Assembly: GCA_965645245.1 (NCBI GenBank)
Contig: OZ287072.1
Coordinates: 1 to 64,000, forward strand
DNA length: 64,000 nt
Direction of reading: 5' to 3'
DNA from: Massalongia carnosa
Taxonomy: Eukaryota
The notes beneath the pieces are model-generated. The model made no database searches. It saw nothing but the letters and a program-made list of their open reading frames with translations, and had not been told where the DNA came from. Of this stretch, positions 5,091-59,694 are shown piece by piece; positions within the stretch are counted from its first letter, which is position 1, and each line of letters begins with the position of its first letter. Made by a program: the position numbers and the translations under genes.

Positions 5091-7042
5091 CTGGAATAAT
5101 GCTATTCCATTCCCATATCTCTTTTGAGGTCTTTCTGTGTGACCATCTTGATCTCCTTTAACGTCCGGTTAGAATTCGCATTGTCAAACTGGCCTATTAC
5201 AGATTCAAGTCGCTCTAGTAAATTCTGTACCACCCACAGCTCGATCACCCTTGAGTTAAAGCTGGCTGAAGCTGTAATGTTGTCTGCGTCAAGCCGTATC
5301 TCAAGCATAAGAGCATATGTGCTGAATCACTGTTGTTGGCTGCTATCCTGCCACTTTCCAAGCAGATCCTGGGTAGAGTCATTATCCTGCAGCTAAATGA
5401 CAAGCAGCGTTTAGAACATGCACGATTACTTACTATCAGGGCCCGTCTTGGCAATTTGATGCAAGCCAGTCTGCTCAAAAGGGATCATATCTATTGCTTG
5501 TCGTTGTTCTGCCTCCAAATATTCTGAAACTCTTTGGTTGCTGGCTACCTTTATGCGAACTGGAGCCGTGGCGATTGTTGGGCCTGCCATCTCATCAATG
5601 CCAACAACAGGCGCGTTCCTTCCAGACACTGTGACGCCAAACAAAACATTATCTGAGTCTGTCATATGGCTAGTGACCAAGGCCCATGTAGCGCGGATAA
5701 CCGTTAATGTTGTAATATCCAGAGCATTCCGGGCGAGCGGCTGACCTATCTCCATAGACTCTTTTCTGTCAGCTTGGAGATACTCATTTAGTCCTGTTGC
5801 CTCAATCCAATGGATGTCTTCGTCCAAGACCACCTGCAAAAGGCCAATATCATTGTGCTGAACAATTCTTGTACGCAAGATTTCTATTGTCCCGGCTACT
5901 TTCTTCCATGCATTGTAGAAAGCCCTGATTGTGCTGTCTGAAGATAATTCTAGGGTACTTTGCATAATGTAGTCTCCTGATCGCTTTGATGACAGAGACA
6001 AAAGACCTTCTGGAAGTGGAGTGTATTGATATGCGTCCTCAATAGTAGCTGGGTCTAATTGACACTGAATCGAAATATTCTGGATGAGCAAGGTGATATC
6101 AAAGCTGTTACCCAGAAGAGAAAATGGTATGATATACTCCAGAAGGTCATCCGCTAAACCAAGCCCCTGGTGTGCCACATGCTCCAACCGAGGATGGCGG
6201 AAGATGTTTGTCATTGCTAGTTTGACGCCAATCTTTTGAGCCTCACTCACAAGTTTCATTGCTGCAATTGAGTCACCTCCAAGCCGGAAGAAACTATCGT
6301 CAAGCTCAATGGTCGTCGGGTTAATGATGAGCACCTGGCCCTATATCCTCTGCGTCTGCCACTCTTCCTCTGACTTCGGCTGCCTCTTTTTGTCTTGTCC
6401 AGCTGTTGAACAGAGAATGACCCACCAATCTCACACAGTCGTCTCCAGTTTATCTTTCCTGTGACTGTCATAGGTAGCTCCCTCATGGAAAAAAATACTG
6501 TTGGCACCATATACCTCGGTAGATGCTTTGCCAGCTTGTCCTCTACATCAGCTGTAATGAGAAGAATATTAGCCATGGTAGACTCTGCCTCGATGGTTTC
6601 TGTCACATTGTAGTTTATCTTGGCGAACGCCGCTAACACTAGGCTTAGATTCTCCCCTAGCGGCATAATGACTTCAACCACAACCTGTCTCGCTTGCGGT
6701 AGGCACTCCTGCACGCGGTACTCAACCTCTCCAAGCTCAACTCGTTGTCCGCGGATCTTAACTTGTGCATCTTTTCGGCCAATGAACGTCAGGCTCCCAT
6801 CTTTGTTGTACCGCACCAGGTCACTTGTCTTATAGAGTCGTCCATATCGTTCTAGCCGACCCGGCGCCTCTTGCAGTAGCCATGCTGGGTCCTCAAAAAA
6901 CGCGGCTGCAGTCTTCCCTGGATCGTTTAGGTAGCTCTGGAAGATAAGTGGCCCTTCAAGCAGTAGCTCACCGATGCATCCGAGCGGGAGTAGATTACCG
7001 TAATTATCTGGATCCACAACCCAAGCTACCAGCAGGCCCGCG
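5091..7042 (-). pseudogene. NRPS fragment (A-domain C-terminal half, T, C), frameshifted
   Basis: GELLLEGP, RLYKTSDL, GRKDAQVKIRGQRVELGEVE (A); FFRLGGDSIAAMKL (T); FGVTVSGRNAPV...GPTIAT (C); frameshifts; TE junctions at both ends. Confidence 0.9.
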
Positions 7043-7783
7043 GCGGGATGTCCTTCCCAAGCCGTGTACGGCCAAGCCCTCACCCGCGTTTTCGAGGGCG
7101 CACAGGACTCTGGGAGGGTCGTAGCAGCCAATACCGCCTAGGAGGTGGGCTTGGGCTTGATGGGTGTAAGGTTTTGGTCCAGGCGCTCCCGTCTTCTCCC
7201 AGCGAGCATTTTATTTGAAACAGTAAATGAGAAGGCAAGGATCATAGAGATATTTAAAGGCAGTAAGCTGACCAGGGAGAGCTTCGAATTCGATCAAGCG
7301 CTCGTAAAACTTCACAGCAACGACCGGGCCCAAAAGACAAGGCCGATGAACGTGCGAATATACTGATGCGGACCGTCAACGGCGCAGCTACTTCATGATC
7401 CGTCGGACGAACCGCTGGCGCTGTGCGTGATTCAGGAACGAAGGGGCCGGTGTCAACATGACGGAATCGACGAAAGCGCTCGCCACGAAAGAAGGGCTCG
7501 GAGGAAATCATCCGAACGTTCGTGACAGCATCATCGCGATCAGATAGGTTTGAAGGATTTTCACGATGGGAGTTCATGCTTACTGTTGACTAGCAGGAAT
7601 GCAAAGGCGTCAGAATAGACAAGGTTTCTTACTTCTGAGCATGCCATTTTTGCTAACTTGCTTCGGGCACTCTGGGCTAGCTCCCGGCGCAGTTTTAGCA
7701 CCGAGCTAGAGACCCTGAGAGCTACTCGCAATCGCTTACGGTAGTACTGTACAAGGTACAAGGTTCTATAAATTTAGCTACGT

Positions 7784-10168
7784 TGTGAAGGGATAAACTG
7801 GGTGGTGGCGAACGATAGAAGGATGAAACAAACAAACAAATGACCGAATCAACAGAGCCTCACTGCATCGATGAATTAATCGTCATGCCCATCAATGGCC
7901 GACTAGCTGTATGAATGAAAGTGTCTATGATAGCTGTATGTGTTGATAGCAGTATGATCCGAAGATGGATATCCCGAAAGATGAGAAGGAAAGTTTGAGA
8001 AAAAGACTCATATAACCGGAACGCCAAGACGCCAGCACCCGACCACATGACCATTCACCTGACTCATCACCTCACTTGCCACCGACCCGGTGGAGTTCCA
8101 CTCCACCCCTCCACATAGGTCCCCGGTTGACATAGGTGTCGTCCCATGACACCGAGTCTAGACTTCGCTCCCCCGCATTTCTCCTTTCAGCTAGTCCATT
8201 AGACGTTCTTGTCTGTTCTAGCTCATGACCGCTGTGTCGAATCCCCAAGCATGATTGACCTCAACACCTGTCAATTTGCTAACGTTATTCATGACACTAG
8301 CAATTTGTTTCCAGCCCTCAGGAGTTGAAACATATCGTACAAACCTCTTCTGATTGGCCGAGCAGTCCTGCTCTGACTGCTTGTAGTTAGCTCGTAGGTG
8401 AGGTGGTACGTACGCACCCGTCTGTCGCGGTTGGTCAGGGCCCATAAGCAAAGGTCCGAATACGCTGCGTTGAGGTATCGGGGTCGGAGATGTTGTTGAC
8501 TGCTGATTTAACAGGCCGGGCCTGTTAAATGGAGTGGAGCTACTTTGTTCCGGCCATGATCTCTGCTGTTGCTGTTGCCGACGGTCCACTCTTGCCTGCC
8601 TGGCGCGTTCCGACTGCCATGGCCCCGATGGGAGCGGAGCAGCTGTCCGACGAAGAGGGGGCGTGGGCCCGGAAGTCTTGCTCGGTGGTGCTCTGCTTGC
8701 TAGTCGTCCGCTTGGTGAATGGGTCACACGGTTGGCTGAAACAGAGGCTTCAGAGCGGGGTGGAGGAGATGGGCTAGCTGAACCACGTGTATCATGAGCC
8801 TTGTCACGATCGGTCTGCATGCGACGTTGAAGCACCTGATTCTTAAGTTCTAGCAAAATCTTTGCTCCCTCGTCCGTTTCTAGCATAAATTTTGCCAAGA
8901 GCGGGTCTAAATGCATCAGGGCTTCATTGACCGACATCTCCGTCATTCGGCTTATCGGAGTAACTAGCGCCATGGCCTTGATTAGAAGATAATCAAGCAT
9001 CAGCGAGAATATTACGGTGTCGACAGCGGGCGAAGACGAAGCTGATTGATCAGAAGATGATGAATCAGGCATGATGATCGGTGCAGGCATGGCAGAATTG
9101 GTGGCTGGAACGGTGACAGGTGAATCAATAGGCTGAGCACCAGAAGTCTCACAGACGTCAGGGTTGATGTCGGTCATCCGGTCCTCTTCGGCCCGCGCTA
9201 GTGCAGCACCTAAATCAGAGTCTGAATACGAATATGCCATTTTTGGCCTTTCCAGCTCAGACGCAGAAGACTCGGTGATTGACACGGTGTCATGTGGCTC
9301 GGTCACAGGCTCGGTCGGCGGCGGACTAGTGGTGGGTGGTGTCATGGACGCTGCTTGGCAGTTGTTCAACCATTCCTCCATGTTCGCAACAGATATGATA
9401 GGTGCCACTAAGGCACACGAGTCGGATGATGACGTTGCTGCCCTGTTCGCGGTCGCAGCCGCACTTGCCCAGCAGCAGAAGGTGATGCACGAGGTGACGG
9501 CCGTCAGTGCAGCAAGGATGAGGATAAGCCAGTCCCAGGAATGTACATCTGGTTGGCAGGTCGTCGGTGATAGAATGGTGGTGGTGGTGGTGGTCGCGGT
9601 GATTAAAAGGGAAAGATGAATTGGGGCCATCGTGTGCTCGGCCCAGTGCTCAATTTTATACACTCTGTCGCGTACTCGATCTCGGTCGCAGTCTCAGTGC
9701 TCGTGCTCGTGTCTCGTGTCTCGTGCCTCGTGTTCAGTGCTCAATTTCTAGCCTCGTGCTCGTGCTTAAGAGGTTAATGATGTTCAAATGTTCTTGCTCA
9801 GGTCCTACTACTTCCGATCGCACCGTGGTCGCCAAATGTGAAGGGATAAACTGGGTGGTGGCGAACGATAGAAGGATGAAACAAACAAACAAATGACCGA
9901 ATCAACAGAGCCTCACTGCATCGATGAATTAATCGTCATGCCCATCAATGGCCGACTAGCTGTATGAATGAAAGTGTCTATGATAGCTGTATGTGTTGAT
10001 AGCAGTATGATCCGAAGATGGATATCCCGAAAGATGAGAAGGAAAGTTTGAGAAAAAGACTCATATAACCGGAACGCCAAGACGCCAGCACCCGACCACA
10101 TGACCATTCACCTGACTCATCACCTCACTTGCCACCGACCCGGTGGAGTTCCACTCCACCCCTCTACA
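7784..10168 (-). mobile_element. Non-autonomous LTR retroelement with a single cargo ORF
   Basis: 332-bp LTRs at 7784-8115 and 9837-10168 (one difference seen), TG...CA ends, 4-bp TSD ACGT, PBS-like TGGCGACCAC next to the 5' LTR; no pol motifs inside. Confidence 0.92.
8218..9630 (-). CDS. Hypothetical 470-aa protein: hydrophobic N-terminus/TM segment, low-complexity body, YVPPHLR motif
   Basis: Uninterrupted ORF filling most of the internal region; first ATG at 9630; WLILILAALTAVTSCITFCCW hydrophobic stretch. Confidence 0.7.
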   Translation of the reverse strand: MAPIHLSLLITATTTTTTILSPTTCQPDVHSWDWLILILAALTAVTSCITFCCWASAAATANRAATSSSDSCALVAPIISVANMEEWLNNCQAASMTPPTTSPPPTEPVTEPHDTVSITESSASELERPKMAYSYSDSDLGAALARAEEDRMTDINPDVCETSGAQPIDSPVTVPATNSAMPAPIIMPDSSSSDQSASSSPAVDTVIFSLMLDYLLIKAMALVTPISRMTEMSVNEALMHLDPLLAKFMLETDEGAKILLELKNQVLQRRMQTDRDKAHDTRGSASPSPPPRSEASVSANRVTHSPSGRLASRAPPSKTSGPTPPLRRTAAPLPSGPWQSERARQARVDRRQQQQQRSWPEQSSSTPFNRPGLLNQQSTTSPTPIPQRSVFGPLLMGPDQPRQTGAYVPPHLRANYKQSEQDCSANQKRFVRYVSTPEGWKQIASVMNNVSKLTGVEVNHAWGFDTAVMS

Positions 10169-10186
10169 ACGTATTCCCAATATATA

Positions 10187-12106
10187 ATCGTGCCAAAAAC
10201 ACTAAACCCCAACCGAGTCAGGGTCTAGTGCCCGACGGTCTACTGACGCATATAGTCTACTGACGCACTTTTCCCATTTTCACTACCATTTCTGCTACAA
10301 ATCAAGGACAACAACGGTTATGCAGAAACTGATTGATTATGACGCTGGTAAAATAGCTTCGCTTGTCTGGGCATCGATCTGGCGATTCTTTTATACCTTT
10401 TGTCCAGGGCAATCTGCTTCTTTTCAGCAGCCAGTGTAGTACGTTCATAGGCCAGTCTGGTCATTTCCACCTCGTTCTGACAACGTTTCGAGGTTTTGGC
10501 CCGTATATCTCCTACAGTTATGACCCCTCCCTTCTGGGCGACCTTTCTATCCAATTTTCTACGGGCCGCCTTCGCGATGGACTGTTGTTGACTGGCTCGA
10601 AGGTCCCGCTCAATAATCTGACGTGCATGCGCATTGGAAATAGAGCCCTTCACAAATCGATTCACATGACAATCCCATTCATTATCCAGCACGTTGTATT
10701 TCTTCAAACTCATTCGAAGGTGTAAGCCATATTCAACCACCTCTTTAGTCGTACGAGGCGTTCTGGCGAGCAGAGGGGCTGACAAAGGTGGGGGCGGGGT
10801 AGCAGGTCTCCGAGTTTGAATTGCCTCCAGCTTTCGAATTACCACTTTGGGGTTATAAGGCACCAGACACGTGTTTCTGAATGACGATAATATGGTAGAT
10901 GAGGTGAATGTTTGATTTCGCATGCGCTGAAAAATGGACAAAAAATCCAGTTTGTCGAAATCTGCCCCTCCGAGTCGCACTATTTCATCAATGCCTTCGG
11001 AATGATAATGATTGAACGGCTGAAAACATCCTACATCCAATGGCTGAGTGAGATGTGTTGAATGAGGAGGCAAACGAAACAATTCAATGTGATTTCGTTT
11101 GGCATATGTAAAAAACTCATATGTCATATGAGATCCATACCCGTCCATGATCAACATACGCCAGGCCCCTACCTGACCCTTTCGACTGTGTTTATCGAAA
11201 TGTTTCAACCAATCAATAGCCAAATCATCATTGGAATAGCCGGTAGGACTAGTAGTTAACAAAACATCGTCATTCAGATCGTTTTGTTGTGTCCACTTTT
11301 CGAGAATCAAAGCCCCCGCGATAATCACCATGGGGGGAATGTTTCGCCCCCCAGCACTAATACACTCACACGAGGTAACATATTCTCTATTATCTGGATC
11401 TGTCAATAGCAAGGGCTTTCTGGAGTGAGTTGATATAACCCAATGAGCCCTGCCACAGCCAATTCGAAAGCCCGTTTCATCAATGTTCCAAACGTCCTCG
11501 TCCGCTAATCCCCGCGTCTTTCGCGCAGTTCGATATGCTTCCAAAATACTCGAGCATCTCCTTTGCATTGTGCGCGTGTTTTCGCTCAGCGGCCAGAGGT
11601 TTTTGTTTTCGCTTGAAAAATTGAGGATGACGATTGAGGAAACGTTTGGTCCAGGCCTCGCTGACGTAAGGGGGGGGAATGGAGGCGTCTAAATGAGCTT
11701 CTCGAAGTAGATAATTAGCAGCCCCCTAAACCATTGAAAACCTGGCTGATTGTTCGGCTTGATCGAGCATCACAATATATTCACAAAGGGCCAATTCTTG
11801 TTCATCAGATAAGGCCTTGTTGGGGCCAGATCGACCGATGCGCGAACCCCCTCCAGCAAGTCGTCTTTGAAGCGTACGAATGTCGACATCGAAATCAATG
11901 GCTACTGCGCGTATACTTCGAAATTCACCTGTGTTCCACGCGTTTCTAGCATCGACAATTTGATCCTCCTTATTAGAATATGAGTTAGGCATGGTGGTGG
12001 TAGATGAAAGACGTGGTGAAAATGGTAGTGAAAATGGGAAAAGTGCGTCAGTAGACCGTCGGGCACTAGACCCTGACTCGGTTGGGGTTTAGTGTTTTGG
12101 CACGAT
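10187..12106 (-). mobile_element. pogo/Fot1-type DNA transposon, disrupted transposase
   Basis: Long TIRs (atcgtgccaaaa.cactaaaccccaaccgagtc...), TA TSD; HTH ORF 11726-11992 and DDE ORF 10318-11568 (NIDETGF, LIMDGYGSH, QPLDVG) separated by a stop/frameshift. Confidence 0.93.
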
Positions 12107-15585: not shown

Positions 15586-15694
15586 GGTACCCGCAGGGTA
15601 CCGAGGACAACCGACATGAGGGAGCAGGTATACTGCCATCATGGAGGAAGGACACCATAAAGGAGATAGGAGAAGGCATCCGCAGGATGCCGAG

Positions 15695-15960
15695 GATACA
15701 ACTCGAATGGGGGAGTAGATGCCCTGCCATCATGAAGGGAATACAACCCGAGTGGGGGAGCAGATGTCCTGCCACCATGAAGGGAGTATAACCCGAATAG
15801 GGGAGCAGATGCCCTGCCACCATGAAGGGAGTACAACCCGAATGGGGGAGCAGATGCTCTGCCACCATGAAGGGAGTACAACCCGAATGGGGAGCAGATG
15901 CCCTGCCACCATGAAGGAAGTACAACCCGAATGGAGGAGCAGTTGTCCTGCCGCCATAAG
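15695..15960. repeat. 45-bp tandem repeat (~6 copies)
   Basis: Unit gggagcagatgccctgccaccatgaagggagtacaacccgaatgg. Confidence 0.9.
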
Positions 15961-16066
15961 GGATGGGATGAAAGGTGCAAAGAGAGGACAACTCGCATGA
16001 GGGAGCACATCGCTTGCGATTGCCATCATGGGGAGAAGTGCAGGAAGAAACAACCGACTACGCAAG

Positions 16067-17330: not shown

Positions 17331-17500
17331 TGTGACGAAGGGAGCTAGTGAATAGATTTCTACCATTGCGCCACCTGTCCTTCCCGACAAAAGGCACAAT
17401 ACTTAGTCCGCAGACTAAGCTCTATTCTACTATAACTGGGACTCCTGCTATGTTCGCTGTAGGTCCTGCCGTCCGCACAACGCTTGGTCGAACCGTAATA
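17331..17500 (-). mobile_element. Solo LTR (TRIM family)
   Basis: TSD TAAAC; reverse complement of the LTRs at 45873-46043 and 46273-46360. Confidence 0.88.
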
Positions 17501-20500
17501 TAAACATAACTTCAATTGCTCACAAATAATGAATTTTACTTAATACAGCTCTAATTACCATCTTAATAACATGAATAAAGTCAATAATTCCCGTTCTTCC
17601 TCTTCATGTCATGAAACGGCTTCGAATCAAAAGGATCTCGGCCTTATCCCTAGTTGCCCCCTCTATCCTGTCCCTACCTACCGTACCGTAGGTTCATTGG
17701 AGCTACTGCAGGTTCATTGGACCTAACGCAGGTTCATTGGAACGACCGCGGGTTTATTGGACCTACCGCGGGTTCATTAGACCTACCGCAGGTTCATTAG
17801 ACCTACCACAGCTTAATTGGTCAGTGCGCGCTGTTTCAACCTTTCTCGATGCGGTTAGATCGAGTACGGCTCCGCCTCCGATCTTCGAAACCATAATTAC
17901 TCGGTCCCCATTAGGTGTCTTCGTATTAACTTAGGAAAAGGAGATGAATAGGAGATATCGAAGATCAAGGAAACAAAGGGGTAAGGAGTTGAGGAACAGA
18001 TATAAAATAAGGGGTCGAGTCTCGAAAGTTCTGGCTCCTTGTCCGACGTCTTGAATAGCAAATCTAGCCTAGCTGTAGCTATAGACTCAGTTAATTAGAA
18101 AGCTTGACCATCCAATCCAGTCCCTTGACATTACGTCGGACCTATCCCTTAAAAAGTGCCTTCTATAGCACTTTTCTCTATCCATTCCTTTTTCAACCCA
18201 GCCATGTCTTCTCAGGAAGAAAACCCCCCTCATCAGGACGAGCGTGTGAGATTTGTTCAGGAACGTCTTCAATCCAACCCTCAACAGTTCTTGAACGAAA
18301 GGGAAGCCATGTCGACCGAATTAGCTCAGCTTCGCGCCGCTGCCAAAACCCCATCCCCGTCCGCTTCCGATTCCCCCGTCTCGACTCTCATCCCAGCTCT
18401 CGCCCCATCCTTGGATCCCCAGATAGCTGCCCTGATGAAGCTACTCCTAGCAAGGAACTCCGAACCACGTTCAGAAAAGCTCCCAGATATTCCGGAATAC
18501 GACGGGGACGAAGCTCGACTCGACGCCTGGGAACAAAGCCTCATTCAGCGAATGCATATAAACAATGATCGCTATCCCTCCGACTAATCCAAAATCGCGT
18601 ATGCAGAAACTCGACTAATCATCGGAAAAAAGGCTCACAACCTCATGAACTCCTATCGAGTTGACGGCCTTTGCACACTGACCTCCTTCTCCGACTGGCG
18701 ATTCGCTCTTCGTCGTGCCTGTGGCAACCCCTACGAACAAGAAGATGCTCGAAAATATCTCCGAGAAACGTTGAAACAGGGCAGTATGAGCTTTGAGGAA
18801 TACTATAACCTGTTCTCCCAAAAGAAGGATCGCTCGAGAATGGAGGACGCCTCTTTGATTGACGCTATGAAGATAAACGTCAACTATTCAACTCAGTCAG
18901 CGGCCCTCATGTATCGGGTTCCGGGTACCAATCGACAACCGATTACCTTCGATGAACACGTCAACATGTGGTTGGAGACGACCGCGGTCTGCGTCAAATT
19001 CGTCACCTCGCCCCTAAATCCTCCAACACTACCGCGGGACTCAATGCTTCGGCTGCCACCACCTCAACGTCCCGAAAGTTACAATCAACCAATCAGCCCT
19101 CGGCAGTCAGAGCTGCTTCTGTCCCCTCCTCTTCCACCCCCCCAGCACCTCTGCCCGTCGGCGACCCGATGGATCTTAGCTCTGCTATGGCCGCAGTCAA
19201 GGGCCATTCACTTAAAACCGAGGGAGTTAGGAAGATTTGCGAAGACTGGAAGCTCTGTTTTTATTGCAAACGCCAGCATCCCGGGAAGTCAGCCATTGAC
19301 TGTCCCAATAAAAAATCAACTCACCTTCGAACCATGGATCTCATCCCCGAGGGTCCTGATAACAATCAGGAAAAAGCCTAGTCCCTGCGCTTAGTCGCGT
19401 GCAGGGACCTCCCGTTTTCATCTCTTCTTGTTTGATAGCCGACTCATTTTCCCCTTTTCTAAGGTCTAATACTCGTTTTTCCGTAGCGTCCGCTTTGGAG
19501 CTGTTCGAATCAGATAAAACGTTCAAAGACAGCCACATGGTAGTTGCCTGTACTTTACGTTTATCTAGATTCAGAATTAAAACATTTAACCTTGTCGACT
19601 GTGGTGCATCTGGCTACTCATTTATTGATGAAAACTTTGCGCAAACTCATCAAATCCCTCTTCATCCCCTCAAATATCCTCGACGCCTTGAAGGAATTGA
19701 CGGCTAGGCAGCCTTGTCCGGAAACATCACCAAGGTGGCCGAAATTATCATGACCTAGAAGGTCATGTAGAAAGATTATTTCTATTTGTCACCGGATTAA
19801 AACATTACCCAATTGTCCTGGGTCACCCATGGCTTCGACGGCACAATGCTGTAGCTGATTTTGGAAACAATACCCTCACCTTTGCCTCTCCTTTCTGCCT
19901 CACTCATTGTTGCCCCCATCCTGTCAAGATTCCTGCCATCGAAGAAAAATTCCTCACCCCAGTCGAAAGTCAGAAAGTCTGGGAGGCTGAGGATGTCAAC
20001 TCAGTCAAGAAAGTTTTCGAAGACATCACGTCCATGCAAATTATCAGTACGTCGAAAACTTTCCTAAAACAAGAGGAAAAAAATACCTCTTCAACTAAAC
20101 AAATCGAGCCCAAAGTCGAAACCCCTCTCGAGCCCCTATCAAATGATGAACCGAGCCGTATCGAGAAGACAATTCAGCAAGGACTCACTCCGAAAATTCG
20201 ATATAGAAGTCCTTCTTCACTTCGTACATCTACTCAAAGACGTGCCAAACAGAAAGCACGCAAAAACATCCCTAGCCTGCAGCTAAACGTCTGCGAAATC
20301 GAAGCCGCCTCCTTCAACCGACTAAGCCGGAAGAAAAATCACGATATCTTTGTTCTTTCGATGAAAGAAATCGATCGCTTCTTAAGAATAGAAGCCTCAC
20401 CTAGCCCAGTTCCCAGTCTAGCCCTCAATCAAAGTCCCAGCCTAGTTATCAATTCTAGTCCCTGCCCAAGTTATCAACCATTATCTCCCCAGTCGAGTCT

Positions 20501-21430: not shown

Positions 21431-21762
21431 TGTAGAGGGGTGGAGTGGAACTCCACCGGGTCGGTGGCAAGTGAGGTGATGAGTCAGGTGATTGGTCATG
21501 TGGTCGGGTGCTGGCGTCTTGGCGTTCCGGTTATATGAGTCTTTTTCTCAAACTTTCCTTCTCATCTTTCAGGATATCCATCTTCGGATCATACTGCTAT
21601 CAACACATACAGCTATCATAGACACTTTCCTTCATACAGCTAGTCGGCTATTGATGGGCATGACGATTAATTCATCGATGCAGTGAGGCTCTGTTGATTC
21701 GGTAATTTTTTTGTTTGTTTCATCCTTCTATCGTTCGCCACCACCCAGTTTATCCCTTCACA
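21431..21762 (+). mobile_element. Solo LTR of the cargo-ORF element, inserted in the RT of D
   Basis: 332-bp reverse complement of 7784-8115 with a few differences; 4-bp TSD GTGC. Confidence 0.95.
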
Positions 21763-25176: not shown

Positions 25177-28100
25177 CCTTATCCCTAGTTGCCCCCTCTA
25201 TCCTGTCCCTACCTACCGTACCGTAGGTTCATTAGAGCTACCGCAGGTTCATTGGACCTAACGTAGGTTCATTGGACCTAACGTAGGTTCATTAGACCTA
25301 ACGCAGGTTCATTAGACCTAACGCAGGTTCATTGGAACGACCGCGGGTTCATTGGACCTACCGCAGGTTTATTAGACCTACAACAGCTTCATTGGTCAGT
25401 GCGCGCTGTTCCAACCTTTCTCGATGCAGTTAGATCGAGTACGGCTCCGCCTCCGATCTTCGAAACCATAATTACCCGGTCCCTATTAGGTGTCTTCGTA
25501 TTAACTTAGGAAAAGGAGATAAATAGGAGTATAAGAGGGACAGTAGATACTAGTCCTTATGGGTTATAATGCTCAGTATGACTGCTAATAGATTGGTAGG
25601 TGCTAAAGCTAAAAGCTGATTCCCTGAAGATGGGAATCGAGCTTTCTATATACCCCTTGGGGTCCTATTTACTAACTACTTGTCTGGTTACCTGTCTGCC
25701 TTGTTGCCTTCAGCTGAGGTCTAGTAGATAGCCTTGCTGCCTTCAGCTGAGGTCTAGCAGATAACCTTGTTGCCTTCAGCTGAGGTCTAGCAGATAGCCT
25801 TGTTGCCTTCAGCTGAGGTCTCCTAGGCGTCCCAGGCCTCCCATGAGATCGAGGCTTATCTGAATAGCTTCAGTTGCTGCCTAACAAACTGGTAAGGCTG
25901 ATTGCTGATGGCTTAGTATTGCTATCCGCCTTATCATGACTAAGCATCCGGATTATCAGTCACCCGGTCTTCTTGAGTGAGTCATCCCAGGAGCTAGCGC
26001 AGTCCTGTATTGCCGCGCTATTACAATTACCTCCCTTCTAGTAATGAGCTCCTGCGAAATTCATCCCAGGTAGTTCGTGCGTTCAGCCCATCATCGCGTG
26101 GTAATTGCAAGCGGTTAATCGTGCCGATGGCTTTAACGTCGATGGCCGCTTGAATGCAGGCTAGCAAGAGTTGGGATTTGTAAGAGCTTGGAAGATATTA
26201 GGATAACATAACTTGATGCTCTGGCTCAGCCTGATTAAAAACCTCCCACCTCCCTTCTAGGGAAGGTGCTAGGAAAAGAGCTACTGGCCTGGATGGAATC
26301 GAGCATGACGTTACTGCAACACATTGCTGAGCTCCTAGCGCAGCCTCATTAAAAACCTCCAACTTTTTTTCGTGGGCAGGTGGTAGGAAAAGAGTGCTGG
26401 CCTTATTTAGTCCTCTTTGTGCGTCGTCCTGTTTCTTTCGCTAATGAGGGAGTCCTAGTGGCCTGAGGGGTGGACTTTGCTGTTGGCTTGGTAGGATTTT
26501 TCTCATGAAATTCCCTCAATAGCTTTCGTAGATGTTTGACGCCGGCGACGGGCTCCCATGTGTCTTCCGCGTTGGGATAACCTTTCCAATGCACTAGATA
26601 ATATAATCCAGCCGGTCGTCCGTCTTCTGCTTCTTTTGCATAGACTGCACTATCTCGTATGCACTCTACTTCATACTCTTGCATGTCATCGTCTTCGAAT
26701 TCAAGCTGTTCAGCCATTTGTTCGTCTACTACCTCCCTTCTGGTGGTGTCTCTTTCCAGCAGAGACACATGAAAGACTGGGTGTATTTTCCAACTTTTCG
26801 GAAGTTCTAGCTCGTAAGCTTGAGTGCCTACAGGCCTCAACACCTTAAAGGGACCCAAGAACTTATGCTCAAGCTTCTTGTTCCTTTTCGTCTTAATATG
26901 TTTGCTGTTTAGCCAAACCATATCATCGGGAGCGTAGCAACGTTCTTTCACCGTTCTATTGTGATATTTGGCTTGATTGTCTTGGGCTAATTGCAGGTTA
27001 TTTTTCAACTCTGCCAACAAATCGCGTAGATTTTTAGCCTGTTCCTCAGCTGTCTTCGACTTCGATCGAGGGTCTTGGTTATCTTCATAACTCATCCTTG
27101 GGTGGTAGCCTATATTAGCCTCGAACGGGGTGAGCTTGGTGCTTGAATGACGGGTGTTATTATATGCAAATTCAGCGGTAGGGAGCCATTGCACCCAGTC
27201 ATCTTGCTCGAAACGGCAGTAAGACCTAAGGTAAGCTTCCATGGTACTATTTTGACGTTCTGTCTGACCGTCTGTTTGTGGATGGAAGGCTGTGCTTAGC
27301 CTACGCTTTATTTTCATGTAATAGCATAGGGATGACCAGAAGTTTGATGTAAATAGCGAGCCCCGATCGGTGACTATGGAGTCAGGTAGGCCGTGATACT
27401 TGAACATGCAGTGCCTTAGCACTTCAGCTAACTGTTCAGCAGTCAGCGTTTTCTTCACTGCCTCATAGTGCACCATCTTGGTGAGCCTATCAACGACGAC
27501 TAGGATGGAGTCATAATCAACTCCCCTCCAGTCCTTACTCTTAGGTAAGCCAGTGACGAAGTCCATCGTAATGTCCTTCCACTTATGAGTTGGTATAGAC
27601 AACGACTGCAAGTTTCCATAAGGCTTATGCCTCGTAGCTTTGCTACTCATGCAGACGTCGCAACCCTCTACATAGCGTGCTATGTCTGACTTCATCGATG
27701 GCCAGTAGTACTTTCTACTCACTAGCTCAATCGTCTTGTCTTTCCCGAAGTGCCCTGCCAGCGGATCATCATGATTTAACTCAAGAATTTCTCCTCGTAA
27801 GGAGGCTAGGATGTAGGCCTTTCCTTCATGGAATAGACAGTGGTCCGAGTCCGACCATGGCTCGCTGGAGGGCGCCACCTCCTGTGTCCCCGACACGTCA
27901 CTGTCTTTCAAGGTAGCTAACCTTTTCCGAACAGTGATAGCGACCTCGTCAACCTGTTGCAACTCAGGAAGACGCTCTAATACTCCCCTAGAAGCGGGTT
28001 GAGTATAAGGTGACTCGCGCTGTGCGAGAGAGTTTCGCAATGAACTCCAGTATGCCTTCACCTTCGGAACAACCAATGTTCCGCATGTTATGATCTTCCA

Positions 28101-31100: not shown

Positions 31101-34100
31101 AATCCATTGATATATCTGTCCAGGGCCGGTCTGGTATAGGTAGCGGATTTAATAGTCCGGAATAACCGTCCCTTGGAGCTTTTGCTCTTTTGCATGTATG
31201 ACAATTTCGAATGTATTGTTCTATGGTCCCTTTCATCTTTGGCCAAAAAAAGAATTTCTTCATCATCTCGTAGGTCCGCTTTATTCCCGGATGGCCAACG
31301 GCTGGTTGATCGTGAACTTCCTGTATCAGCTTCATTCTCTTTTCTTCGGGGACAAATAGTTTGGCATTATTCTCGAGCGGATCTTTCGACTTTTCCGCGT
31401 TGATCTCGTTCATTTCAAACCCCATTTCCTTTTGGATTTGAGGGTCTAGGCTTTCGAGAGGTAAGATTATCTAATGTTGATGCCTTTGCCTGTCATCTTC
31501 CTCTGATTCGGGCCTGTCTCCTGGTCTTCTAGTTAGTGCATCTGCATTTGTATGGAATTTTCCAGCTTGGTATGTGATGACAAAATTGAAATCGGCCAGA
31601 AATTCAGCCCATCTGGCCTGTCGCCTATTTAGCTTTTTGGTTGTCATGAAATATTCCAAGCTTTTGTGGTCGGTCAACACTTTGATTGGGAGCTCGGTGG
31701 ATTGCAGCTCAGGCCTCCATTGTTCGAAACATTTGATTATTGCAAGCAATTCTTTATCGTATATTTCATAATTGCATTCGGCTGGCAACAGGCTCTTTGA
31801 AAAGAAGGCTACTGGTCTGATAAGTCCATCTTCACCTCTTTGCGATAATACTCCGGCTGACACATAATCAGATGAATCCGATTCCACGAACGTTTCTCGG
31901 CTTGGGCTGAAATGCGCGAGGACCGGGGCCTCGGTCACCCGTCTTTTCAATTCGGAAAAAGCTGCTTGGCAGGCTGGGGTCCAATTGAATGGTTCGTCTT
32001 TTCGAGTTAGATGTACGAGGGGTTTGGCTATTTTGGAGAAGTCTTTGATAAAACGTCTATAAAAGTTGATAAATCCTAGAAAGGCCTGCACCTGTTTAAG
32101 ATGCCTAGGGATGGCCCATTCGACGACTGCCTCAATTTTGGTAGGGTCCATCTTGATCCCATTCCGCCCGACTACCACTCCTAGGAACTTTGTTTCGGTC
32201 ACATGGAATTCGCATTTATCCACATCAGCCTGAATACCAGCTTCTCGAAGCTTTTGTAGAACTTTTCGAACATGTTTTCGGTGGTCAGTCATGGTTTCAC
32301 TATAAACCAAGAGATCGTCCAGATAGGCTATTAGGAATTCGTCTAGATATTCTAAGAAGGTATCGTTGATGAAGTTCTGAAACGTAGCAGGGCCGTTGGT
32401 CAGTCCGAAGGGTAATACTAGAGATTTATATGACCCAAATCGCGTGCGGAAGGTTGTGAGATCTTCGTCCTTTTCGGTTTTCATCCTAAGTCGGTTAAAG
32501 GCATGTCGAATATCTATTCTTGTCAAAAATCTAGCCCTGGCCAATCGAGACATTATCTCAGATATCAGAGGTAGGGGATATCGATTTTTTTTGGTGATTT
32601 CGTTTAGCTTTCGATAATCGACGCAGAACCGAAGTCCACCACTCGGTTTCTTGGCGAATAGTATCGGCGAGGCAAAAGGGGCCGAGCTGGCTGTAATAAA
32701 TCCTTTCTTCAGATTTTCTTCCAAATATCTCTTGACCAGTAGGAGTTCTCCCTCTGACATATTATATAGCGGGGCATGCCCGGGTCCTTTACCTTCTAGC
32801 AATTCGATGGTATGGTCATGCTTTCTATGAGGGGGCAGTTCATCAGCTTTTTCCTTAGAGAAAACATCAAGAAAATCGTGATACTCGGGGGGGACTATGG
32901 TCTTAGGATCGGTGATTGGCTTTTCTCCCTTGGCTAGTTCAAAGTTGATATCTCTCAGCGAGACTGCAAATATCTCGACATCCTTTTGTTTCGTTAATAC
33001 ATTAAATGGGTCTGCACCTATCATCGCTATATCCAGGGCTTCTTCGCTCTCGGCGTCTTTTCTCCAAGACTTTTGCTTCAAGATATCTTCCTTTCTTGAT
33101 CTTCGAACTGAAATCGGGTTCGAGTTGCTATGATTCTTTTCATCGGGTTCGTCTCTTTTCAATATCTTCTTTGGTTGGAATATAGGCGTGGTGTCCTTTG
33201 TTGAGCCCGGTTCTTCTCTCCTGATTGGCGACGATGGGAAAGGCCTTTCAGGGGCACCTAGATGATTGCAATGATCGGGACGAAAAGAAATCGAATTCGT
33301 ATGCCCATGATAGCTAACACCATGTTTTCGCATCCAAGGCTTGCCAAGAATAATCGTTTGTTGGCCCAGCTCGGTGATCAACATTGGTGTTGAGCTCTCG
33401 GTATGATTTCCAATTTTCAGAGATGGATAAATGGCCTGGGTAATAGGCTTGCCTTTTCTTCCATCATATGCCTTTATCTCTTTCCGTCTATTTAACGTCA
33501 CCGGTGAGATATTAGCCTTTTCACATATTTCCTGCGCAGTTAGTCTATCAACAAAACAATAACCAGTAGATCCAGTATCAATCATCGCTCTCGTATTAAA
33601 TTTATTTCCTACGATACAATCTTCCATTACTGGATGGTTATCGAATAAATCATCCTCCATAAAGAAAGATGTGATAACCAACTCATCTACCCCCGCCGCG
33701 TCTATGACGGAGGTGCGTCTTTTCCCGAATCTTCTGCTTCTGCGCTCATCTCGCTAACCCGTCCCTTTCTAGGCTGAGGGCAGTCTTTGGCCATATGCCC
33801 GGTCAGATCGCAGTTAAAACATCTTCCTTCCTTCATTCTTTTCTCCATGATTGGATCTGTCATGAAATGCCTCCGACCTCACCACGTGCCTCTATCACGT
33901 GCCTTGATCTGATGACTACTCACGGACGTCGTGCCATGCCTTCGGGACCCTCATATCATTCTTCGAATTCGCCGATTACTGATCATTAATCAGCCTCGCA
34001 TTGATGATTTATTCCCGTCTTTCGACTATTATCATGTCTAATAGCTTCGCATTGATGTTTGACATCTCCCGTCTCCTCGCTGACCCCATCGTGCTTATTG

Positions 34101-34420
34101 CCGCTATAATGCCCCTCATTCATCATCGCACTGACTAGACATCATTCGCCGCCACCCTAGAAAGATGAATATGGGAGGACAAAGATATAAGAAAGAAGCC
34201 GAATCATGGAAGTTCTGATTCTTTGTCGAACGTCTTGGATAGCCAACCTAGCCTAGCCTAGATTCATAGCTATAGACTCAATCAATAAGCTTGACCATCA
34301 ACCCACCTTGCCTTTGCCCTTGCCCTCGACCTGATTTCGTGACATTACGTTCGACCAACATTCAAAAGTGCCTTCCATAGCATTTTCCCTCATCTCCCTT
34401 TATCTCATTCCCCCTCAATC

Positions 34421-35563
34421 ATGTCTTCAGCAGAAGAGAACCTCTCCGAGCTGGATAAGCGTATTCGATTCATTCAGGAACGTCTTCAGGCAGACCCTCA
34501 GCAATTCCTGAGTCAAATGGACAACCTAGAAGCCGAAGTAAACCAACTTCGCAACAATGCCAATACCCCTTCTATTTCCGAGCCCATACCTATCTCAAAT
34601 CCACCCCCCCCTACCTTGGATCCGCAAATCATGGCCATGATGCAGCTGCTCCTGGCGTCAAAAAACTCCCTCATCCGCTCCGAAAAGCTCCCGGACATCA
34701 CGGAGTATGAGGGCGAAGAAGTCAAGCTGGATGCGTGGGAGCAGTCCCTGATTCAAAGAATGCATGTCAACAATGATCGATACCCGTTCGATCAAGCCAA
34801 AATTGCCTATGCCGAAAGCCGACTCACCATAGGCAAAAAGGCTCATAACCTAATGAATGCGTACAGGGTCGATGGCCTTTGCGTACTCACCTCATTTGCT
34901 GAATGGCGATCAGCCCTCCGCCGCGCATGCGGAAATCCCTACGAGCAGGAGGATGCTCGCAAATACCTTCGCGATATCCTCAAACAGGGAAGTAGTAGCT
35001 TCGAGGAGTACTACAACCTTTTTGCGCAGAAAAAAGACCGGTCCAAGATGGAAGATGCCAGCCTGATCGATGCCATGAAGGCAAATGTGAATTATTCAAC
35101 CCAGACCGCAGCCCTAATGTATAGGGTCCCCGGAACCCAAAGGCAACCAACCACCTTCGACGAGCACGTCACCATGTGGTTGGAGACAGATCGTGGCCTT
35201 CGGCAGATCCGCCACATTGCCCCAAAGGCGAACACCACCACTATCACCCCGACACCGAAAAAGCCAAACCCGTTATCAGCACTTCCCCCGACAGTCGCTC
35301 CCGCTGCCAAAGCACCTGTCGCTTCTCCCGCCTCCCCTGCGCTGCTCATTGGCGACCCCATGGACCTAAGCTCTGCCATGGCAGCGGTGAAAGGCCAATC
35401 GCTCAAAACCGAGGGGGTCCGCAAAATCTGCGAAGACTGGAAGTTGTGTTTCTACTGCAAATTGCAGCATCCAGGGAAGTCAGCAACTGACTGTCCCAAC
35501 AAGCGAACCAACCTTCGGAGCATGGAGCTCGAAGCCCCTGATATTGAGCAGGGAAAAGCCTAG
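34421..35563 (+). CDS. gag: Gag of element G
   Basis: 380-aa ORF with CFYCKLQHPGKSATDC knuckle; collinear with gag of D. Confidence 0.9.
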   Translation: MSSAEENLSELDKRIRFIQERLQADPQQFLSQMDNLEAEVNQLRNNANTPSISEPIPISNPPPPTLDPQIMAMMQLLLASKNSLIRSEKLPDITEYEGEEVKLDAWEQSLIQRMHVNNDRYPFDQAKIAYAESRLTIGKKAHNLMNAYRVDGLCVLTSFAEWRSALRRACGNPYEQEDARKYLRDILKQGSSSFEEYYNLFAQKKDRSKMEDASLIDAMKANVNYSTQTAALMYRVPGTQRQPTTFDEHVTMWLETDRGLRQIRHIAPKANTTTITPTPKKPNPLSALPPTVAPAAKAPVASPASPALLIGDPMDLSSAMAAVKGQSLKTEGVRKICEDWKLCFYCKLQHPGKSATDCPNKRTNLRSMELEAPDIEQGKA

Positions 35564-38500
35564 TCTCTGCACATCGTCGCGTGCAGGGACTCCCCCCCCT
35601 TCTCATTTCCTCATGTTTGATGGCCAGTTTTTCCCCCTCTTTGAGATCCAATACGCGATTTTCCGCAGCCTCCGCTTTGGAGCTGTTTGAATCAGATAAG
35701 ACGTTCAGAGACAGTCACATGGTGATGACAGGTATCTTGCGATTATCTAGATCTAGGATTAGAACGTATAATCTAATTGATTGTGGTGCATCTGGCTTTT
35801 CATTCATCGATGAGAAATTTGCGCATACTAACCAAATTCCCCTTCATCTTCTCAAATATCCCCGCCGGCTCGAAGGATTCGACGGCCAAAGGGCTCTATC
35901 CGGCAATATCACTCATGTGGCCGAAATCACCATGGATCTAGAAGGTCATGTAGAAAAACTCTTTCTATATGTCACCGGGTTAAAAAATTATCCCATTATC
36001 TTGGGCCATCCATGGCTCCGCCGGCATAACGCCATAGCCGATTTTGGGCATAATACGCTCACCTTTGCCTCCCCCTACTGCCTCACTCACTGTTGCCCCC
36101 ACCCCGTCAAGCTTCAAGCCGTTGAGGAAGAATTCCTCACCCCAGCCGAGAGTCGAAAAATCTGGGATGAAGAGATCCTCGAAGACGCCCTAGGAAAAGT
36201 TATCAATCAAGACACGTCTATCAGAACGTCGATAACTTCTCTAGAAGAGGGGGAAGAAATTCCCACAATCAAAAATTCTATTCCTGACAATCCCGTCAAA
36301 ATCGAGGAATCCATCCCTTTGTTCAAAACCGCGCAGCGCGATTTCACCTTAATCAAACCCGAAATTAATGAACCCGAACCCCAGCCTCAAAACCCCACCG
36401 ATGAACCCAGTCGCATTGAAAATGCAATCCAGCAAGGGCTTCCCCCCCCGAAAATCCGATACCGAAGCCCGTCCAAATTGCGGACATCCACCCAAAGACG
36501 TGCTCATCAAGCAGCACGCAAAACCACCCCGCAGATGAATGTCTGCGAAATCGGAGCTATCTCCTTCAATCGACTGACTCGGAAGAAAAACCACGATAGT
36601 TTCGCCCTGTCCATGAAAGAAATTGACCTCTTTCTAGGAAAAACCAACCCCGAACCTCTAGTAATGAAAGCCTCACCTAGTTCAGCCCCCGATTTGATCG
36701 AAAAAGCCAAAAAACCCAGCCCAGCCTACCAACCATTGCCATCTGGAGCAAGCCCGCACGAGAAAGAAATCCACCTAGCCTTATTTAAGATGAATAAGGC
36801 CCTAACCCTAGCCACCGCCGTGACTCGTGAAGAGTTAGACGCTTACCGAGAAAGTAAGAACGTCGACCCAGCCCCCCTTCTGCCAAAGCAATACCACGAA
36901 TTCCTAGATGTCTTCTCGAAGAAGAAATCCGAAGACTTGCCCCCCCGCCGTCCCTACGATCATGCCATAAACCTGAAAGAAGGTACGCAGGCCCCTAGTC
37001 AGGCCCTGTATGGTATGAGTCGTACCGAAATCGAGGAGCTCCGCCGCTACCTCGACGAAAATCTAGCCAAGGGATTTATTCGGGCTAGTCGCTCCCACGC
37101 CGCCTCCCCGGTGATGTTCGTGAAAAAGCCAGGTGGGGGACTTCGATTTTGCGTGGATTATCGTGCTCTGAATGCCATCACGATTAAGGATCGCTATCCG
37201 CTGCCCTTGATCGCCGAGACCCTGCACCAATTAATCAAAGCCAAGATATTCACCAAGATAGACATCATCGCCGCCTTCAATATGCTCCGCATACGAGAAG
37301 GAGACGAAGAACTCACCGCTTTTCGCACTCGTTTCGGCCTTTTCGAGTCCTTGGTCCTACCCTTCGGCCTATGCAACGGGCCCGCCTCATTTCAGCACTT
37401 CATCAACGATACGCTTCACGAGTATCTTGCTGACTTTTGCACTGCGTACCTAGATGATATCCTCATCTACAGTGACAATGAGCTGGAGCACGAGGTCCAC
37501 GTCAAAAAAATCCTGTCTCGACTCCGAGATGCAGGCCTGCAAGCCGACATCACCAAGTGCAAGTTCCATGTCACCGAAATTGCATACCTAGGGATGATCG
37601 TGACCACCGAAGGGATAAAAATGGACCCGGCCAAGGTGGAAACCGTCGTCAATTGGCCAAACCTCGTCAATGTGAAAGATGTGCAAAGCTTTCTGGGTTT
37701 TGCTAACTTTTATAGACGATTCGTGTATGGGTTTAGCGACATAGCTGGCCCCCTAACCAACCTGACCAAGAAGGAGACGGAATTCCTGTGGACTGACAAA
37801 TGCCAATTGGCATTCGAAATGCTGAAAAAAGCTTTCACCTCCGATGTCATTCTCAGGCATTTCGACCCCGATCGTCCCATCATCGTCGAAACCGATGCCT
37901 CCGACTATGTTTCGGGGGGCATTCTTTCTCAATACGACGATGATGGGATACTTCACCCCGTCGCCTACTTCTCAAAGAAGCACAATCCCGCCGAGTGCAA
38001 CTACGAGATCTATGACAAAGAACTGATGGCAATCGTTCGATGTTTTGAAGAATGGCGACCCGAACTAGAAGGATCTGCCTTCCCCATCAGCGTCATATCC
38101 GACCACAAAAACCTGGAGTATTTTGCCTCCACCAAGCAGCTCAGCCGTCGCCAAGCTAGATGGAACGAATTTCTCTCTCGATTTGACTTCAAGATAGTCT
38201 ATCGACCAGGAAAAGCCGGAGGAAAACCGGACGCTCTAACTCGTCGATCGGGAGATCTTCCTAAAGAAGGGGATGATACGGACGAGCGAAGGAAATTTCA
38301 ACACCAAACCATTTTGAAAACCGAAAACCTGGATGAGGAAGTCGCAAAAAGTTATTTGCGATCCATTCTTCTGGCACCAGCTTTCCTAGATGATGCAGAT
38401 ATCGAAGAAGCAGAACCTCAGCTAGATGAGGACCTCATCGATCCCGATGAGGATATCTCCACGGAGCTCCTCTGGGAACAAGCCCTGACACGAGACCAAT

Positions 38501-40008
38501 TCGCCCCCGAAGTCCTGGAAGCCCTTCGTAATAACGAGAGGCATCACAATCGAATCCAATTAGCCGAATGCGAAGATAGGGACGGTATCTTGTATTTTCG
38601 AAACAAGAAATACGTACCTCGATCCGATCGTCTGAGGCTTCGTATCATTCAACTCGCTCACGATAGCGTCGCCGGCGGACATCCGGGCCGTTCCAAATGC
38701 CATGAGTTGGTAAATCGATCCTACTGGTGGCCCAGCATGCATCAGTCCATCAAGCGATTTATCCGAAACTGCCACACTTGCAGAAGATCAAAACCATCCC
38801 GCCAGCGCTATCAGGGCTGGCTACGCCCACTCCCCCCCCCCGAGCGCAGATGGCGGGATATTTCCATGGATTATGTAGGCCCCCTGACCCCCAGCACCTT
38901 CATGGGAATCACTTATCGCTACATCTTGGTGGTTATAGATCGCCTGTCCAAGATGCGACATTTCATTCCTATCACGTCCATGGAAGTTGAAGACGCCGCC
39001 GATGCGTTCTATCAGAATGTCTGGAAACTACATGGGCTTCCCGAAGCCATGGTTTCTGATCGTGGCCCCCAATTCGTCTCCGATTTCTGGCAGCTCATGT
39101 GCAAGAGGCTGAAAATCGACGCCAAGCTATCCACCGGATACCACCCGGAGACCGACGGGCAGACCGAGCGAGCCAACGCCACCATGGAGCACTACCTAAG
39201 GGCTTATGTCAACTACATGCAGGATGACTGGGCACAATGGCTTCCTGGCGCCGAATTCGCCAGCAATAACACCGATTCATCTAGTATCCTGGCCTCCCCC
39301 TTCCTAGCCAACTTCGGGCAACATCCCCGCATGGGATTTGAACCGGAGGAACCCCTGCCGCAAGACCTAACCGCTCAGGGCAGAGCAAACCTAGTTGCAG
39401 CCAATCAGTTCGTGAATAAGATGCAGGATATCGACACTCATCTTCGAGACGAAATGCTGATGGCCCAAGCTTCGTACGAAGCAACTGCAAATGCTAACCG
39501 ACGTCCCTGACCCCGCTATTTCGTTGGCGATATGGTGTGGCTAAGCACCAGAAATATCCAAACCGCTCGCCCCACAGTCAAGCTGGATGACCGAAATATC
39601 GGCCCCTACCGCGTCAGCAAGGTGTTTTCCAACCCCTTGATCGTACAGCTGGAGCTTCCCGATACCGTCAAAATCCATCCCGTCTTTCACGTCAATCTGT
39701 TGCAGCATGATGCCAATGACCCCATCCCCGGGCAGAGACCGGAGCCTAGAGACCCCGTCATCGCCGAAGATGGCCAACGAGAATGGTATGTCAATAGGGT
39801 ATTGAATTCCAAGCTCGACCGACGTTTTCAACCCCCGCTTCTGAAATACCTAGTGGATTGGGAAGGGCATCCTTCCACCTGGGAGCCTTTCAACTATCTC
39901 ATCAATTGTCAGCAAGTCATAGACGAATACCACCAAGCCTATCCCAATGCGGCCGGCCCTCATCTAAACCCCTGTCAAATTCCCCGTTGCCAATGCCACG
40001 AGGCATAG
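35564..40008 (+). CDS. pol: Pol of element G (PR-RT-RH-IN-chromo), -1 frame to gag, one premature TGA at 39508
   Basis: LIDCGA, YLDD, ETDASD, HPETDGQTER, GPY motif, WYVNRVL chromodomain. Confidence 0.92.
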
Positions 40009-59270: not shown

Positions 59271-59694
59271 CTAGTTCGGCTATGCTGAGAGCTAGTGCGT
59301 CGTTAATCGAGACAGCTCCCGCTTTGATTTCGGCACCGCATGGATCTCTCGGACGGCATAGATGTCTCAGCACCATAAGGATGTCTCAGCACGGCATAGA
59401 GATCTTAGCACCGCATCGATCCTTCGGACGACAGTTAGGTTTCGGATTTGTGTATGCCTTGCTATGGGCCGCGTTGATGGGGCATACTGGGATGGTAGAG
59501 TAGGACAAGGAGAATAGGAAGAAGATATATAAAGAGGAGGTCCCAGACGGTATCCCTCATCATCTCACATCTCAAGACAATCAAAAAGCATAGCATTTTG
59601 ATAGCACTGTTTGCAACGTTTTCCTTTCACCCAATTCAAATTTATACAACCACTACACTTAAATTTACTCTATTCAAATCCCTCTCCTCCAAAA

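Follow-up and report, generated by a model that had tools for sequence, protein, structure and literature searches.

Structure and surroundings of the element

The window analyzed here, the whole stretch of 64,000 nt, forms the start of contig C6 in a genome of 52 Mb and 25 contigs and is filled with transposons of fungal type; the host is probably a filamentous ascomycete. A CCCTAA telomere array occupies positions 1–166, and the LTR retroelement described below, named element A, is therefore subtelomeric. Element A is 2,385 bp long (7784–10168) with its sense strand on the minus strand, and it has the order LTR, primer-binding site (PBS), open reading frame (ORF), purine tract, and LTR (Table 1). 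Its two LTRs have TG...CA termini and are identical at 331 of 332 positions (one mismatch), and the flanking target site duplication (TSD) is 4 bp long, not 5. Over 18 nt the PBS matches the 3' end encoded by a host tRNA-Arg(TCG) gene (C14:1695230) with CCA added, the leader contains seven CTCGTG hexamers, and the ORF begins at the first ATG after the PBS. The LTR pair, 4-bp TSD, PBS-like site, and CTCGTG-rich leader reported in the initial annotation were all recovered. The LTRs with their TSD, the PBS, the purine tract (PPT), which aligns to that of the helper described below, and the independent insertions of the family are among the features by which a non-autonomous LTR retrotransposon is recognized.

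Table 1. Features of element A and related sites, in window coordinates.
Feature	Position	Strand	Remarks
5' LTR	9837..10168	-	332 bp, TG...CA; final 24 nt match the U5 end of helper C
PBS	9817..9834	-	Pairs over 18 nt with the 3' end of the host tRNA-Arg(TCG); common to families A, B, C, and D
Leader	9631..9836	-	About 205 nt; without upstream ATG; CACGAG repeats at 9700-9764, similar ones in helper C LTR
Orphan ORF (P0001)	8218..9630	-	470 aa; homologue of the family B ORF
Single predicted transmembrane helix	9466..9534	-	Residues 33-55; Cys pair at its end; conserved in B
Central helical block	8761..9048	-	Residues 195-290; about 25% identity to B
SGPWQSxRAR arginine-rich motif	8593..8628	-	A/B differences: 6/6 at third codon positions
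Palindrome within ORF	8506..8530	-	11-bp arms, 3-nt loop; also in helper C pol 5' end and other repeat families
Pre-PPT inverted block and short purine tract	8116..8153	-	77% like helper C over 56 nt
3' LTR	7784..8115	-	332 bp
TSD ACGT	7780..7783; second copy 10169-10172	+	Present once in the empty allele of other samples
Solo LTR of family A	21431..21762	+	TSD GTGC; inside a chromovirus pol

The ORF is the only one of the element, as the initial annotation had stated, and is far longer than the longest stop-free frame (287 codons) found in 1,000 base shuffles of the interior. Protease (PR), reverse transcriptase (RT), RNase H (RH), and integrase (IN) were not found by Pfam in element A (0 families), whereas the helper frames give all four. 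The ORF is indeed open beside broken neighboring genes, but this copy is very young, so its intactness is weak evidence by itself. No signature of RIP was found in 7784–10168 (TpA/ApT 0.54).

Several other features were observed in the window. A DDE_1 (pogo/Fot1-type) transposon with perfect inverted repeats of 55 bp directly adjoins element A (10196–12098), and a fragment of a nonribosomal peptide synthetase condensation domain lies at 5426–6259 on the minus strand. An NLR-like frame of 998 aa (48744–51740, minus strand) combines a TPR array of 126-bp units with DUF7779. The element at 59267–63494 has 368-bp direct repeats and a divergent RT-RH, and its layout is DIRS/Ngaro-like. Tandem arrays of 45-bp and 20-bp units are found inside repeats at 15652–15965, 17664–17838, and 25199–25413.

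Copies and mobility of family A

The family A LTR has at least 41 matches in the genome, a lower bound as 40 of 55 candidates were scored. The interior has 38 matches, four of which are whole copies with different TSDs, three of them with open frames. The whole copies on C8 and C1 each differ from that on C6 by two substitutions; in these three the frame is open and the LTRs of a pair are 0–1 mismatch apart. The fourth, on C10, belongs to an older subfamily that is 86–87% identical and has one stop. The solo LTR in the window is 98% identical to the LTR of element A and has its own 4-bp TSD, in agreement with the earlier view that the family moved more than once. A matching 4-bp TSD was read at 17 of 24 solo LTR loci and a 5-bp TSD at none of the 24; a chromovirus of the window (33858–40537) has the 5-bp TSD GGATC, as previously described for these elements. 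Two inverted family A solo LTRs, each with its own TSD, lie 29 bp apart at G000:C14:299919-300611.

An empty site was also found. In a comparison of four runs (at most three samples, from two studies), contigs of runs X1, X3, and X4 join the flanks of element A with a single ACGT, while the same runs still contain 84–93% of the words of its interior; this insertion is therefore a polymorphism, and those runs carry the family at other sites. With four whole copies, empty sites, and no pol, the description of a multi-copy, recently mobile satellite stands.

A second satellite family with a homologous ORF

A genome-wide protein search with the ORF gave 49 matches, 45 of them outside family A. Twenty regions of these non-A matches were examined: 14 have LTR pairs of a second type, named family B, and six are partial matches only. 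The family B unit is 2.7–3.0 kb long (some are interrupted), with a 336-bp LTR unlike that of A, the same PBS, no pol, and a single ORF of 603–654 aa when open, in addition to a short upstream ORF. The A and B ORFs share, in order, an N-terminal transmembrane (TM) segment, an acidic patch, the central helical block, SGPWQSxRAR, FxRPGL, and VSTPEGW. Since a homologous ORF exists in a second satellite family, element A is not the one-off deletion derivative that would have spoken against the initial annotation.

Probable helpers and the cross-match of short signals

The PBS pattern occurs 64 times in the genome (control, 1) and once within the window, where the initial annotation had expected no helper; a matching helper is present elsewhere in the genome. 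Among 20 PBS sites examined outside A and B, six of which were picked because the palindrome lay downstream, 10 belong to a family C, nine to a family D, and one to neither. Helper C is a non-chromoviral Ty3/gypsy element of 8.76 kb with a 350-bp LTR; helper D is 8.3–9.3 kb long with a 324-bp LTR. In both, gag-PR ends at a stop with a TTTAAAC slippery site, RT-RH-IN follows in a −1 frameshift layout, and an orphan ORF3 comes last. PR, RT, RH, and IN were identified by Pfam in C, and the order PR-RT-RH-IN without a chromodomain match was found in C and D. Their pol products are 62% identical to each other and 23–25% identical to those of the window chromoviruses. Both long frames are open at six of 10 C loci and one of nine D loci. 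ORF3 is homologous between C and D and follows pol (L145:8494-9009, L149:1148-1957), with no Pfam family and six unnamed database matches.

Element A matches C at 42 of 45 nt (93%) across U5-PBS and at 77% over 56 nt around the PPT, in addition to the CACGAG repeats, while B matches D at 39 of 41 nt (95%) and at 80% over 50 nt, respectively; the A–D match is weaker (82%). The LTR bodies of satellites and helpers, including those of A and C, do not align, so the helper assignment rests on these short signals. The TSDs were read at 30 loci each for A, C, and D and at 10 solo LTRs and four whole copies for B, counting only insertions with both flanks present and matching; one duplicated A site was left out, and two D sites that share flanks may be one event. 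The central dinucleotide is CG in 16/19 A and 10/13 C insertions and TA in 10/14 B and 10/13 D insertions (Fisher test: A vs D, 1.3e-6; B vs C, 3.4e-5; A vs C and B vs D, 1.0 each). Because the integrase sets TSD preference, the simplest reading of the matching centers is that C mobilizes A and D mobilizes B. One A solo LTR (L019) and one C element (L188/L189) were found at the same base of one multi-copy repeat, which also occurs at 17453–17496 of the window.

The genome-wide LTR survey of family A is in this way joined by a candidate autonomous partner, C, recognizable by its short signals and PBS. C is the probable helper of A, and D is matched likewise to B. Judged from these sequences, the RNA of A would very likely be packaged in C particles, primed by tRNA-Arg(TCG), and reverse-transcribed and integrated by the enzymes of C, which would yield its CG-centered 4-bp TSDs.

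Selection on the reading frame

The family B ORFs were aligned over 14 copies, three of 17 having been dropped for length. All 14 indels shared by at least two B copies are multiples of three, compared with 15 of 23 private B indels (p = 0.015) and four of 10 shared indels in the A and B LTRs (p = 0.0016). Similarly, the three indels between the two A subfamilies are all in frame, and in-frame losses as large as 162 nt are tolerated. Stops were found in 10 of the 14 aligned B copies, and one of four A copies is broken. The stops at codons 29, 199, and 604 are each common to two B copies in a pattern that does not fit one tree, and they would be explained equally well by broken copies having been inherited or by C-to-T changes having recurred.

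Maximum-likelihood omega is 0.73 in A, superseding an NG86 value of 0.53, and 1.12 over the 14 B copies, where decaying terminal branches dominate. A test of fixed versus private synonymous and nonsynonymous changes was not significant (p = 0.23). Between A and B, protein-guided blocks of 233 codons are identical at 0.63, 0.70, and 0.47 of first, second, and third positions, respectively, values biased by the alignment, with pS 0.60 and pN 0.34; around the palindrome, third positions are conserved too. The blocks of the WQS motif and the C-terminus have pS 0.60–0.81 and pN 0.16–0.31. The WQS block, which was also found at the DNA level (36 nt, ungapped), has 0/0/6 differences by codon position, and the three DNA-found blocks pooled have 31/27/36, a third-position excess that is not significant (p = 0.18).

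The earlier expectation that copies of the ORF would be neither disrupted nor neutral therefore holds for the reading frame, which is kept, but not for the omega of B or the number of broken copies. By these comparisons, constraint acts on the frame and on a small number of motifs but not on most residues, and recent amino-acid constraint is weak. The frame is retained in the lineages that leave progeny, which argues for action in cis; the genomic RNA probably serves as the mRNA of the ORF, and a copy would probably need an open frame in cis to leave progeny.

The ORF product

The ORF product (P0001) has one hydrophobic segment at about residues 33–55 (Kyte–Doolittle 19-residue peak 2.41), its only strong hydrophobic peak, and consists of S, P, T, and Q at 37%. 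The structure model has a TM helix, isolated helices, and disorder at low confidence (mean pLDDT 49, pTM 0.27), so that it cannot exclude a fold; the TM segment and the topology are predictions from hydropathy and this model. Within these limits, the hydrophobic N-terminus, TM-like segment, S/P/Q-rich disorder, and helical block of the initial annotation reappear.

Searches for relatives gave little. A search of a protein collection with P0001 retrieved only itself among the best 8,000 candidates scored, a profile search (A2) retrieved three proteins, and a library of 1.84 billion proteins gave four. Of these four, P0002–P0004 are letter-for-letter identical to loci of this genome and P0005 was rejected as a repeat-rich chance match, so no independent homologue of P0001 was obtained. 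In metagenome contigs, none of 579 pattern matches was confirmed. The ESM Atlas gave no usable match for the whole protein or residues 195–290, which shows neither absence nor novelty. Nothing significant was found for element A or its ORF in Pfam, PHROGs, PDB sequences, or Rfam. Foldseek gave no match at E ≤ 0.001 in the pdb and viral sets for the low-confidence model, with which a fold is not excludable. The best VIA Z score of 4.7 reflects generic long helices, and the MLLE rows of the fold search (E about 5) were too weak to be adopted.

The palindrome

The palindrome within the ORF has 78 exact matches in the genome. Element A has it, B has a degenerate form, and C has it where pol begins at the 5' side; it also precedes a copia-type gag and is present in two other repeat families. 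Among 20 extra sites sampled, nine and seven fall in the two further families, three are copia-linked, and one is in C. With 19 of 20 such sites in non-C flanks, a C-specific packaging hairpin was rejected; the palindrome is a nucleotide-level element, and it may also be the sole sign that A descends from a C-like ancestor. A compensatory change in B was rejected (the B copy is degenerate), as was a second copy in C ORF3, since the second copy on L157 precedes a gag of copia type. One of the palindrome repeat families was also considered as a Harbinger element, which was dropped because the frame lies outside the repeat. In family D (L148-L150, L154) the corresponding position of pol is occupied by another palindrome, which recurs in ORF3 when this is of the long form. 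The 23-bp palindrome itself, found in both satellites, one gypsy family, a copia-linked repeat, and the two other repeat families, is a candidate binding site common to several TE families and forms a separate second lead.

Proposed mode of action and alternatives

Element A is best explained as a satellite LTR retroelement that codes for a protein and whose ORF has its effect in cis (probability about 0.55). The satellite would be transcribed from its 5' LTR and translated from the first AUG; at the endoplasmic reticulum (ER), the helper Gag would capture the satellite RNA tethered there by the N-terminal signal anchor of its own product. The arginine-rich and helical motifs could hold RNA or Gag, the disordered remainder would be a spacer under little constraint, and priming by tRNA-Arg and integration by the helper IN would follow. 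The role of the N-terminal helix as a signal anchor that tethers the translating RNA for Gag capture is a tentative part of this scheme. A precedent is Ty1, in which SRP-dependent targeting to the ER during translation lets the RNA nucleate the assembly of particles (PMC3945221), but Ty1 belongs to a different superfamily. By extension, and more doubtfully, fungal coding satellites might each carry an orphan, membrane-anchored cis hijacking factor that routes their RNA to helper particles, and might switch or co-diverge with helpers by retuned U5, PPT, and targets, in the manner of satellite viruses.

The main rival, which we consider rather unlikely, keeps the same satellite and helper but reduces the ORF to a translated shield against nonsense-mediated decay, the protein having little or no function. 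It would explain why the ORF fills 1413 of 1721 interior bases, why the frame is strictly kept at such omega values and with such large in-frame losses, and why the pooled codon test is not significant. It accounts poorly for the TM helix, WQS motif, central helix, and VSTPEGW, which A and B have retained in the same order though synonymous sites have mostly changed.

The initial annotation had further proposed an env-like, surface, or effector protein. A retroviral-type env has a C-terminal TM anchor behind a large ectodomain, whereas the sole strong hydrophobic peak of P0001 is N-terminal; no secreted-effector signal was found in P0001 either, and neither suggestion is supported. More generally, action in trans on the host or helper, as a surface, cell-to-cell spread, anti-silencing, or incompatibility factor, is improbable, even though the N-terminal TM has adjacent cysteines and the B protein has 11 K/R in residues 16–45 after it, a basic patch missing in A. 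Accessory TM proteins help MDG1 elements spread (10.1101/2025.03.14.642691); those of the sORF2/FAST type have a single TM after an N-terminus of 10–50 aa, an arrangement that P0001 may have, judged from its hydropathy. However, the ORFs are 470 aa in A and 603–654 aa in B instead of 60–210 aa, neither has an MGxxxS/T myristoylation motif, and each has one K/R within 15 aa after the TM where at least three are expected. A purely trans-acting product, moreover, would not hold inherited indels so strictly in frame.

Descent of the ORF from a far-diverged Gag, or from a gag-pol deletion of a C-like ancestor equivalent to TR-GAG, is less probable again. The ORF sits in the gag position, and the 20–27 residues encoded at and beside the palindrome agree with those at the 5' end of pol in C, read in the same frame; Pfam also misses the Gag of the helpers themselves, so its blank for P0001 is weak. 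Nevertheless, hhalign of the ORF profile gave a probability of 0.15% against the helper Gag-PR and 0.6% against the helper ORF3 (shallow profiles limit its power), P0001 has no Cys-His knuckle, its low-confidence model has separate helices in disorder, and the sole shared stretch is the palindrome, which is present in unrelated repeats. The ORF product is accordingly not detectably Gag, in line with the initial annotation, nor detectably env or FAST. Passive carriage of a captured host gene is very improbable: an intron-less orphan ORF between LTRs is the expected product of retro-transduction, but the 20 non-A regions are B-type elements or partial matches, and no single-copy host parent was found in the genome search or the protein collections.

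Comparison with known systems

Replication-defective retroviruses that carry cargo and the mammalian MaLR are helper-dependent LTR elements with one gene, which may be an oncogene taken from the host, a modified env, or an ORF related to Gag. A satellite whose ORF acts in cis would resemble them as a one-gene, helper-dependent element, but the origin of its cargo is untraceable here. Among autonomous elements, Ylt1 has a TSD of 4 bp. Helpers C and D share the PR-RT-RH-IN order and the lack of a chromodomain match with Ylt1-like non-chromoviral fungal Ty3/gypsy elements, and differ from them in the gag-PR/pol −1 frameshift layout and the orphan ORF3; their placement in the Ylt1 lineage is a lead (PMC2864245).

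TR-GAG elements are shorter than 4 kb, have the order LTR-PBS-single ORF-PPT-LTR, are multi-copy, and depend on a helper, and element A agrees with them in size, single ORF, and presence in at least two copies. Their ORF is Gag by definition and their TSD is 5 bp, in contrast to the absence of Gag similarity, the TM helix, the 4-bp TSD, and the fungal host of element A (PMC4350172). TRIM, LARD, and other non-autonomous LTR families likewise lack pol and are joined to a partner by short shared signals, but they are described as non-coding or as retaining remnants of gag/pol, whereas here a long non-Gag frame of 470 codons is kept and two satellite–helper pairs can be matched (PMC13570524). Orphan ORFs in LTR elements were reported as ORF0 of Retrosat2 (PMC3485330) and as the antisense ORFs of Retand (PMC11963269), both elements with pol. 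MDG1 sORF2 is a single-pass TM accessory ORF, but on a pol-bearing element; P0001 is much larger, has no myristoylation motif, and is the only gene of its element (10.1101/2025.03.14.642691). A literature search of limited coverage listed no element from fungi that lacks pol yet carries an ORF other than Gag.

Non-autonomous LTR elements are usually regarded as having no coding capacity or only Gag, and it is rare that a helper can be named for them; in sugar beet, 61 of 115 such families have no traced helper (PMC13570524). Two satellite–helper pairs in one genome provide a natural cross-matched test of the short signals that determine which helper is used. Selective retention of a frame that is not Gag suggests, in turn, that a factor for hijacking or spreading can be encoded by the satellite itself. 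Element A works like TR-GAG and TRIM elements but falls outside both in content: its single ORF lacks the Gag similarity that defines the former, and its interior is coding where that of the latter is not.
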